Assembly (NCBI GenBank): GCA_038064835.1
Contig: JBBTSD010000001.1
Coordinates: 170,361 to 234,360, forward strand
Direction: 5' to 3'
Source: Patescibacteria group bacterium
GTDB taxonomy: Bacteria; Patescibacteriota; Minisyncoccia; Phycocordibacterales; UBA2100
DNA length: 64,000 nt
Positions 22,143 through 22,454 of this stretch are shown here, in pieces (within the stretch, counting starts at the first letter, position 1; every line of letters begins with the position of its first letter). Made by a program: the position numbers and the translations under genes. The notes beneath the pieces were generated by a model. That model was not told the DNA's origin. It ran no database searches and saw only the letters and a list, made by a program, of their open reading frames with translations.

Positions 22143-22214
22143 CGCGGGGTAGAGCAGTGGTAGCTCGTCAGGCTCATAACCTGAAGGTCGCTGGTTCGAG
22201 TCCAGCCCCCGCAA
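22143..22214 (+). tRNA. tRNA-Met (CAT), initiator-like (C1:A72 mismatch, A11:U24)
   Basis: Cloverleaf: acceptor CGCGGGG/CCCCGCA with an unpaired C1/A72; D-stem GAGC/GCTC; anticodon loop CTCATAA; T-loop TTCGAGT. No encoded CCA. Confidence 0.85.
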
Positions 22215-22225
22215 CAGCCAAAATC

Positions 22226-22258
22226 AAAAATGCCCCTTGTGGGGCATTTTTGTTTTTG
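22226..22258 (+). terminator. rho-independent terminator after tRNA-fMet
   Basis: AAAATGCCCC ttgt GGGGCATTTT followed by TGTTTTTG. Confidence 0.8.
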
Positions 22259-22265
22259 TTGCTGT

Positions 22266-22419
22266 GCGGAGGGCTGGACTCGAACGGGAGGGGGTCGGGG
22301 AACGGGAGTTCCCCGTGGAGGAGAGTAGCGAACGAAGCAAAGCGGAGTGAGCGTTGAGAACCGTGGGTTCTCAAGGAGGAGCGCCGAAGGACGCGACGAC
22401 TTCGCAGTCCAGCCCCCGC
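22266..22419 (+). ncRNA. 154-nt highly structured element closed by a tRNA top-half-like helix; carries an 18-nt exact copy of the tRNA-fMet 3' end (candidate ncRNA or att-site remnant)
   Basis: 5' GCGG-A-GGGCTGGACT pairs with 3' AGTCCAGCCC-CCGC (14 bp with a single bulge). Internal hairpins include CGGGGAA/TTCCCCG, GAGAACC/GGTTCTC and CGAAG/CTTCG. The 18-mer AGTCCAGCCCCCGCAACA occurs at 22199-22216 (tRNA) and at 22406-22423. Confidence 0.4.
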
Positions 22420-22422
22420 AAC

Positions 22423-22449
22423 AAAAAAGCTCTCCCCAAAAGGAGAGAG
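22423..22449 (-). terminator. rho-independent terminator (minus strand) for gene 22455..22739
   Basis: On the minus strand: CTCTCTCC ttttgg GGAGAGC followed by TTTTTTGTT. Confidence 0.65.
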
Positions 22450-22454
22450 TAGAA

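Follow-up and report, generated by a model that had tools for sequence, protein, structure and literature searches.

The stretch at 22217-22423 of the window (the whole 64,000-nucleotide, or 64 kb, piece of DNA analysed here, from the genome of a groundwater patescibacterium) is one copy of a family of elements that lack open reading frames, lie at gene ends and carry copies of the end that they occupy. Locally the order is T, the gene end; s, a spacer with a terminator hairpin; T', an antisense copy; an interior rich in GC; and T2, which repeats T in sense orientation. How did such an arrangement originate? The reading that we favour, at slightly better than an even chance, is that of a non-autonomous insertion element, moved in trans, which leaves its host gene undamaged, since the end of the gene is duplicated. 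A role as functional RNA, insertion guided by the arms and the remains of an integrated island are less probable, and each is weighed below where the evidence bears on it.

The element behind the initiator tRNA gene

The features of the window are:

22143-22215, + strand: initiator tRNA-Met(CAT), host gene of the element (ARAGORN; Rfam tRNA, 68.6 bits)
22195-22216, + strand: T, the copy of the gene end that belongs to the functional tRNA; it starts in the T-loop and stops 2 nt past the discriminator, with the exact 18-mer at 22199-22216
22219-22258, no strand assigned: spacer s, an A-tract, GC hairpin and T-tract, resembling a bidirectional intrinsic terminator (inverted repeat with 18-nt arms, 94% complementary; terminator prediction)
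22262-22285, + strand: T', the antisense arm (inverted-repeat search; local alignment score 17.5)
22279-22379, + strand: class A core, consisting of a purine linker with GGGGTC, hairpin 1, GTGGAGGAGAG, a 28-nt variable insert and hairpin 2 (covariance model R1, 38.3 bits, E 2.5e-8)
22297-22314, + strand: hairpin 1, perfect; covaries in the family
22315-22325, + strand: the invariant GTGGAGGAGAG
22354-22374, + strand: hairpin 2, perfect
22380-22400, + strand: variable 3' extension of the core with an imperfect hairpin, shared with the long class A variants L005, L006, L047 and L070
22401-22423, + strand: T2, the displaced second sense gene-end copy, TTCG-C-AGTCCAGCCCCCGCAACA; pairs with T' and closes the core
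22430-22449, - strand: terminator of the convergent 94-aa gene (terminator prediction; gene called in L001)
38793-38872, + strand: second, truncated element behind tRNA-Thr(CGT), with a hairpin, T' GCCGAGGAGGGAGTCGAA and the first class B core bases AGGCGGAGGCTC

The 18-mer AGTCCAGCCCCCGCAACA occurs exactly twice in the window, at 22199-22216 and, 207 nt downstream, at 22406-22423 (18/18 identity), which confirms a recurrence claimed earlier from the letters of the DNA; no further copy appears when 3 mismatches are allowed. None of 100 dinucleotide shuffles gave two matches, again with 3 mismatches allowed, and the repeat is therefore not a chance event. The spacer s is the centre of a long T-s-T' palindrome, imperfect over 37 nt (22194-22230 against 22249-22285) and centred on the terminator loop. 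T', with one bulged A and a small indel, is the reverse complement of the tRNA trailer, the acceptor 3' strand, the T-stem 3' strand and the T-loop. Its segment GCGGAGGGCTGGACT at 22266-22280 pairs with the second 18-mer (22406-22419) around one bulged A, and this closing helix is part of the minimum-free-energy fold of the + strand (-76 kcal/mol, z -4.3).

The sequence-only reading had described this helix as a repeat of the acceptor and T-stem of the upstream tRNA. The helix exists, but its 5' strand is antisense to the tRNA 3' end and is not the tRNA 5' acceptor/T-stem. Of the three or more perfect inner hairpins listed there, hairpins 1 and 2 are indeed perfect, and the one at 22381-22394 has a C.A mismatch on the + strand. 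Both of its terminators were found again: a bidirectional one predicted at 22225-22252, and one on the minus strand at 22449-22430 that belongs to the neighbouring gene, lies outside the element and sets its right-hand limit. It had also credited the interior with no open reading frame, which is borne out over the 189 bp, and had seen no tmRNA, SRP, RNase P or 6S architecture. The covariance search that it proposed agrees: at gathering thresholds Rfam 15 yields tRNA matches only in the window, and a scan of 22100-22500 at E<=10 adds only far sub-threshold miRNA-type matches on the palindrome. The class A sequence pattern matches the window at 22313-22369, where none is expected by chance. A terminator and promoter scan found no sigma-70-like promoter for this copy, which is flanked by the two terminators. 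The truncated element at 38793-38872 has no T2 and ends at an ORF start at about 38871.

The host gene has the C1xA72 mismatch typical of initiator tRNAs; CCA is not encoded, as read from the sequence. It lies between a 263-aa protein gene (21173-21964, + strand) and the convergent 94-aa gene (22455-22739, minus strand), both without a Pfam match. The 263-aa protein has 725 matches in Paceibacteria, nearly always directly upstream of tRNA-fMet, and is identical in GCA_964361175.1 and in Hainich aquifer assemblies (groundwater). As the window element is found in three independent assemblies of the same population, it is not an assembly artefact. Assembly GCA_964361175.1 (L001) differs from the window at three positions inside T' and the hairpin 1 loop (A>C at 22270, A>C at 22278, A>T at 22307), where two other assemblies (L206, L207) agree with the window; these differences are probably consensus errors or represent a minor strain. 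L207 has a G>A of its own within a hairpin loop. Short-read contigs of the same population (L002, L003, L004, L206, L207) end within window positions 22169-22290, i.e. inside the tRNA, the terminator palindrome or the element, and gene-end units probably break up assemblies of such genomes.

A family in Paceibacteria

In 80 loci of other species of Paceibacteria (Parcubacteria-type Patescibacteria), retrieved via the upstream protein, a direct copy of the tRNA's own 3' end is present downstream of 54 of 185 tRNAs (upstream control, 4). An inverted copy lies downstream of 59 of 185 tRNAs with enough flank (upstream control, 9). About 30% of the sampled tRNA sites are occupied by the layout T-spacer-T'-core-T2, with 110-205 nt between the starts of T and T2 in the relatives; the spacer is in most cases a terminator hairpin. 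In these loci the occupied tRNA genes are those for Met-i, Met-e, Asp, Thr(GGU) and Thr(CGU); in every case the arms correspond to the preceding tRNA. Element size is approximately 100-210 nt, and all are ORF-less, GC-rich and strongly folding.

The interiors form at least four core classes. In class A, to which the window copy belongs, GGGGUC and a first hairpin are followed by GUGGAGGARRG and a second hairpin; in class B covarying helices enclose a GGA/GA loop, and GGGUCG comes next; class C is as class B, but with the first helix continuous; and class D is marked by AACCUGUACCGAUYCUGUAAG. A covariance model (R1), built from 40 minimal class A cores, has all its matches downstream of a tRNA and on the tRNA's own strand, and hairpin 1 shows AU-to-GC compensatory changes in 15 of the 40 sequences. 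Many copies have, between the acceptor and T parts of T', an extra covarying 9-bp hairpin with a CUGC loop; at this position the window copy has the bulged A only. In class B cores (e.g. L024 1440-1480, L009 4860-4900) the GGA...GA internal loop is invariant and resembles a k-turn or tandem G.A motif, and its helices show compensatory changes (GGC/GCC vs GCC/GGC; GCC/GGC vs GCG/CGC).

Rfam scans of class A, B and D loci at E<=1 found nothing on the cores, only tRNAs and one group I intron, and a description of the family was not found in the literature searched. A paper of 2026 that deals with group I introns in the tRNA genes of Patescibacteria contains neither 'repeat' nor 'duplicat', and the passages of it that were consulted mention no such elements (PMC13011429). 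With neither an Rfam 15 match for any class nor a description, we regard the family as undescribed, as far as the literature searched goes.

Could the window copy be what is left of an integrated island, with the two 18-mers as attL and attR and the rest decayed to about 190 bp, or an inverted triplication made by template switching around a terminator hairpin? The repeat runs from the T-loop to just past the discriminator, as T-loop-type att sites do, larger gene-carrying insertions appear to use the same site in L005 and L060, and a T-s-T' palindrome is of the sort that a fold-back would produce. To this extent the att-like duplication proposed from the sequence stands, since the repeat looks like the footprint of an event that restores a gene end. 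The interior, however, is no decayed island. It is a conserved, covarying core of narrow size range that forms the unit at well over 150 other gene ends, and random decay or slippage cannot yield such a core. A direct repeat of the tRNA 3' segment is present, whereas an integrase gene or remnant is absent from the window insert and no recombinase recurs near 120 class A copies. Relatives with an integrase-bearing island between the repeats, which the sequence-only reading had considered, were not found, and its other suggestion, decaying junk, is argued against by the strong conservation. An origin by decay or template switching is thus very improbable.

Arms copied from the occupied gene

The class A core pattern was run over metagenome contigs and gave at least 120 stretches; one match inside a coding region (L099) is a false positive and was ignored. 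The class A and class B core patterns have 0 matches in viral contigs, so that there is no sign of a phage-borne parent. Of 128 class A cores, 65 lie 45-106 nt behind a tRNA on the same strand, with 29 anticodon types represented, and most of the tRNA-linked cores end in a copy of that tRNA's 3' end. In metagenomes the cores are found behind tRNAs of nearly all isotypes. Where are the others? Those inspected that have no upstream tRNA lie at the ends of protein genes, in an identical layout:

rpsI, 3' end: ...KKARKAPQWSKR, then stop
rpmG, 3' end: ...CKWCKAHTKHKEAKK, then stop
glycosyltransferase-like (GT4-like) gene, N-terminus: minus strand

At these sites T' is perfectly or almost perfectly antisense to T (17/17, 19/19 and 21/22), and where T' of L100 departs from T, the mismatches are of the G.U type on the + strand. 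T2, directly adjoining the core, repeats 40-70 nt of the gene end as a displaced copy; at rpmG the differences between T and T2 are mostly at third codon positions. As the arms match the local end at tRNA and protein genes alike, they are taken from whichever gene end is occupied. Between about 20 and about 70 nt are duplicated, in all cases up to the gene end. An RNA derived from a tRNA top half, as had been suggested for the window, is correct as to the closing helix, but the 5' strand of that helix is antisense and the same core stands at protein-gene ends with arms from those genes; the element is therefore not derived from tRNA.

An arm profile from 90 tRNA-linked copies shows that T2 corresponds to tRNA positions 60-74/75 with 92-99% identity and to T-loop positions 54-59 with only 71-86%, with recurrent A-to-T changes at positions 57-59. 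For T', complementarity to positions 54-63 is 91-99%, and the arm then runs on as the complement of the genomic trailer instead of CCA: at positions 74-76 it is complementary to the genomic sequence throughout the family, and in the window it reads CAGC, not TGG. A small internal loop, conserved in copies at tRNA and other genes (e.g. rpmG), interrupts the T':T2 helix 3-4 bp from the core. In folds that leave out the tRNA body and join the element to the last 22 nt of the tRNA only, T' pairs with T and not with T2 in 36/36 cases, T, s and T' making up a single long stem. Where T2 has drifted (L037, L094), T' still tracks functional T, and it follows changes in the tRNA T-stem, e.g. CCAGC paired with CTGG in L037.

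Two further candidates were rejected and a third was not adopted. In a T-loop intron or split tRNA the 5' arm would be tRNA 5' sequence, whereas here it is antisense. A template/variable repeat pair like that of diversity-generating (DGR) systems is not indicated, as the differences between T and T2 are not at the adenines of T2. The third is a small ORF with GGAGG and an NUG start, in frame with T2 at rpmG. At the rpmG sites L168, L175 and L200 the core GGAGGA is followed 5 nt later by AUG or UUG, and this frame runs in phase into T2 (MGKPWVSQSCLWCKAHTKHKEAKK, then stop). Hairpin 2 covaries, the start codon is not conserved, and the in-phase frame is probably a coincidence, though T and T2 differ mostly by synonymous changes.

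Distribution and signs of mobility

Mobility is inferred from distribution only. Related genomes carry different core classes at the same tRNA, and tandem units are found in L005, L029, L038, L042, L061 and L078, those of L005, L038 and L042 being of different classes. Truncated copies exist, including that at 38793-38872 of the window. A class A version of about 215 nt is present in five unrelated flanks (L095, L115, L120, L125, L137); four of the copies are nearly identical and that of L120 has diverged. It has the fixed ends TTTAATGACTCGCC...GAGCGGAGTTTAC with no evident target duplication, and it seems to carry a fossil T/T' pair along. Between genomes, the fMet elements are 70-82% identical in nucleotide sequence and the adjacent protein 40-72% identical in amino acids, with r = 0.02, so that divergence of the elements is not correlated with that of their hosts.

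In L005 and L060, tRNA-fMet is separated by gene-carrying DNA from an older unit, in front of which stands a decayed T-like piece; larger insertions thus appear to use the same tRNA-fMet site. This piece is a conserved non-coding GGTGCCAATCSCGTCSTACSAGYGCAACA (L005 7240-7276, L060 5365-5397) that follows unrelated ORFs and immediately precedes a class A unit; it resembles a degenerate tRNA-fMet 3' end that a gene-carrying insertion at this site has left behind. Clustering of the ORFs within 3 kb of 120 class A copies showed no recurring transposase, integrase or reverse transcriptase; the recurring neighbours are housekeeping genes only (S9, L13, L17, RpoA, GatA, GrpE).

How might the elements insert?

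In tRNA-targeting islands, and in phage 21 at icd, the host gene is kept whole by a duplicated gene end. By analogy with integration that restores a tRNA 3' end or icd, T, the spacer, T' and the core of the present elements would arrive together, and T2 would be the displaced original gene end. Insertion might take place by Campbell-type recombination within T, by a small circle consisting of T, s, T' and core, with the enzyme acting in trans; entry of such a circle into the chromosomal T would yield the layout observed. The intermediate may be a small circle or a folded hairpin, probably single-stranded, in which T would pair with T' and the spacer hairpin would lengthen the stem to give a rod capped by the core; the pairing of T' with T in all 36 folds without the tRNA body fits this picture. 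In the chromosome, the T':T2 helix could hold T' off the tRNA.

The insertion-element reading is favoured by arms that suit many targets, by the tandem units, by the multicopy version in unrelated flanks and by the occupancy of about 30%, as well as by the position of the window copy between two terminators without a promoter. It is weakened in that no excised circle, linked recombinase or empty site was seen; exact-protein look-ups on both flanking genes gave occupied alleles only, and contigs often break in the tRNA or palindrome. Nor does a Campbell model account for T, T' and T2 all being rewritten for each new target.

Might the arms themselves direct insertion? T' and T2 could act as guides that pair with both strands of the target and are re-templated at each event, while insertion or homing of the element would be the work of a core-binding enzyme encoded in trans. 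The loops of the IS110 bridge RNA and the flank-derived guide of the TnpB omega RNA would be analogues of T' and T2. Such a mode would agree with the match of the arms to all targets, 29 anticodon types and protein genes among them, with one core, with T' following functional T in L037 and L094, with one arm layout in four core classes and with the lack of a cis-encoded protein. Against it, there is no candidate effector near any of approximately 120 copies, and a duplication of about 20-70 nt that always extends to the gene end suggests selection or carry-over rather than a fixed mechanism. We know of no guided system that duplicates its target in both orientations, and the scheme is purely inferential; it is an improbable alternative to an insertion element moved by recombination. 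A broader proposal, which we hold only tentatively and consider unlikely as a whole, is that of a programmable insertion without protein genes, in which a folded core with sense and antisense arms rewritten for each target moves via a single-stranded rod or circle the size of a viroid, or by means of an enzyme guided by nucleic acid. If true, one family could colonise the ends of essentially any conserved gene harmlessly, i.e. those of every tRNA isotype and of ribosomal protein genes.

Do the elements function as RNA?

Several features bear on a second possibility, that the elements give rise to a family of non-coding RNAs with a function of their own, released from the tRNA transcript, with T'/T2 as a processing handle that resembles the tRNA acceptor and T-stem. 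RNase P, RNase Z and perhaps the CCA-adding enzyme would excise the RNA, gene conversion would keep the arms identical, and the cores (in class B the k-turn-like loop) might bind protein or act as a ribozyme. Consistent with this, the units at tRNA-fMet align over their whole length across genera and their hairpins covary, which also fits purifying selection on a functional RNA and to that extent weakens the insertion-element reading. The conserved internal loop of T':T2 likewise suggests a function of the fold that the insertion model does not predict. The elements lie always downstream of the tRNA and on its strand. Some copies have, after the tRNA, a short conserved spacer, ACGAAGTG, with no terminator, and must be co-transcribed with the tRNA, a further point against a mere insertion. 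The shared helices show a slight excess of G.U over A.C (17 vs 9).

However, about 98% of the helix pairs are Watson-Crick, and the strand bias falls short of significance. The window copy and most fMet and Asp copies sit behind a strong terminator and have no promoter. A handle would not require the exact sequence of its neighbour. The identical core is found antisense to and upstream of a protein gene, and at the ends of coding sequences with displaced copies; the multicopy version stands in unrelated flanks, and truncated copies exist. From these sequence comparisons, we consider a family of functional RNAs rather unlikely, though the most credible of the alternatives to an insertion element.

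Relation to known systems

Prominent among the systems for comparison are the integrative elements and prophages that target tRNA genes, along with phage 21 and e14 at icd. They share with the present family the terminal direct repeat, the intact gene with its displaced end, tandem accretion at one site and a preference for conserved genes. The elements described here differ in that they are 100-210 nt long, have no integrase, and carry an antisense target copy and a folded core, one core family being used with dozens of targets.

MITEs and palindromic repeats (REP/BIME, Correia, the RPE of Rickettsia) and the GC clusters and double-hairpin elements of mitochondria are also small, ORF-less and hairpin-forming, as well as GC-richer than their surroundings, multicopy and often situated past gene ends with no enzyme in cis. 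Their arms, however, are fixed element arms and the target duplication is short and fixed or absent, whereas here the arms copy the local target in both orientations and the duplication extends to the gene end. With arms that vary by target and a duplication of about 20-70 nt, the elements are not MITEs in the sense of DDE-transposon derivatives.

Integron attC sites and the CTX-phi attP(+) likewise are imperfect hairpins that mimic a duplex site, with unpaired stem bases, a variable apex and cassette-like arrays. Here, the RYYYAAC/GTTRRRY consensus is confined to cases that involve the tRNA T-loop, neither an integron integrase nor a dif context was seen, and the stem consists of target sequence where that of attC follows a family consensus. 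In the tRNA copies T' ends in TCGAAC or TTGAAC and T2 starts with GTTC, with a small internal loop; these boxes are next to the apical core and not at the hairpin base, and boxes of the TCGAAC/GTTC type are absent from the rpsI and GT4 copies.

The primer-binding sites of LTR retroelements and retrozymes are also antisense to a tRNA 3' end and are accompanied by a purine-rich tract and direct repeats. T' was nonetheless rejected as a primer-binding site, as it follows the genomic trailer and not the CCA of the mature tRNA; protein-gene ends are used as well, and there is no linked reverse transcriptase. According to PMC13011429, Patescibacteria have no reported group II introns.

Plant mitochondrial t-elements, mascRNA and the tRNA-like domain of tmRNA provide an acceptor/T-stem mimic near sites of tRNA processing, which implies no tRNA function. 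The present arms, in contrast, are exact sense and antisense gene copies, have no T-loop, also consist of non-tRNA sequences and give no Rfam match to tmRNA or to any tRNA-like family. The PATEs of IS200/IS605 and the omega RNAs of TnpB and IscB are similar as non-autonomous single-strand hairpins in which a scaffold is joined to flank-derived sequence and pairs with the target. But among the neighbouring ORF families of the 120 class A copies there is no adjacent tnpA or tnpB, there is no conserved target of 4-5 nt, and the target is duplicated here, which IS200/IS605 do not do.

Significance and further observations

Genomes of Patescibacteria are tiny and have little spare DNA. Despite that, one or several units are present at about a third of the sampled tRNA genes, and they are conserved across genera. 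Should they prove mobile, they would represent a safe parasitism of essential genes, with many targets and no protein encoded by the element, a point of interest for programmable insertion. As functional RNAs, they would form a large unannotated class linked to the 3' ends of tRNAs in one of the major bacterial lineages. Either way, the elements affect the annotation of tRNA genes, contig breaks in assemblies and the prediction of islands from att sites in Patescibacteria genomes.

Two minor observations concern tRNA genes. In the window, a T-arm-like fragment, GGTTCGAGTCC, is present at 48966-48977, 425 nt downstream of tRNA-Gln and beyond an ORF; this 12-nt match may be due to chance. In L060 (3936-4270), as well as in L087 and L132, the tRNA-fMet gene is split in the anticodon loop by a group I intron, that of L060 being recognised by Rfam at 3957-4167 (70.6 bits) and the other two judged by eye from their flanks. 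ARAGORN missed these three genes, and a class A or B element still lies behind each.
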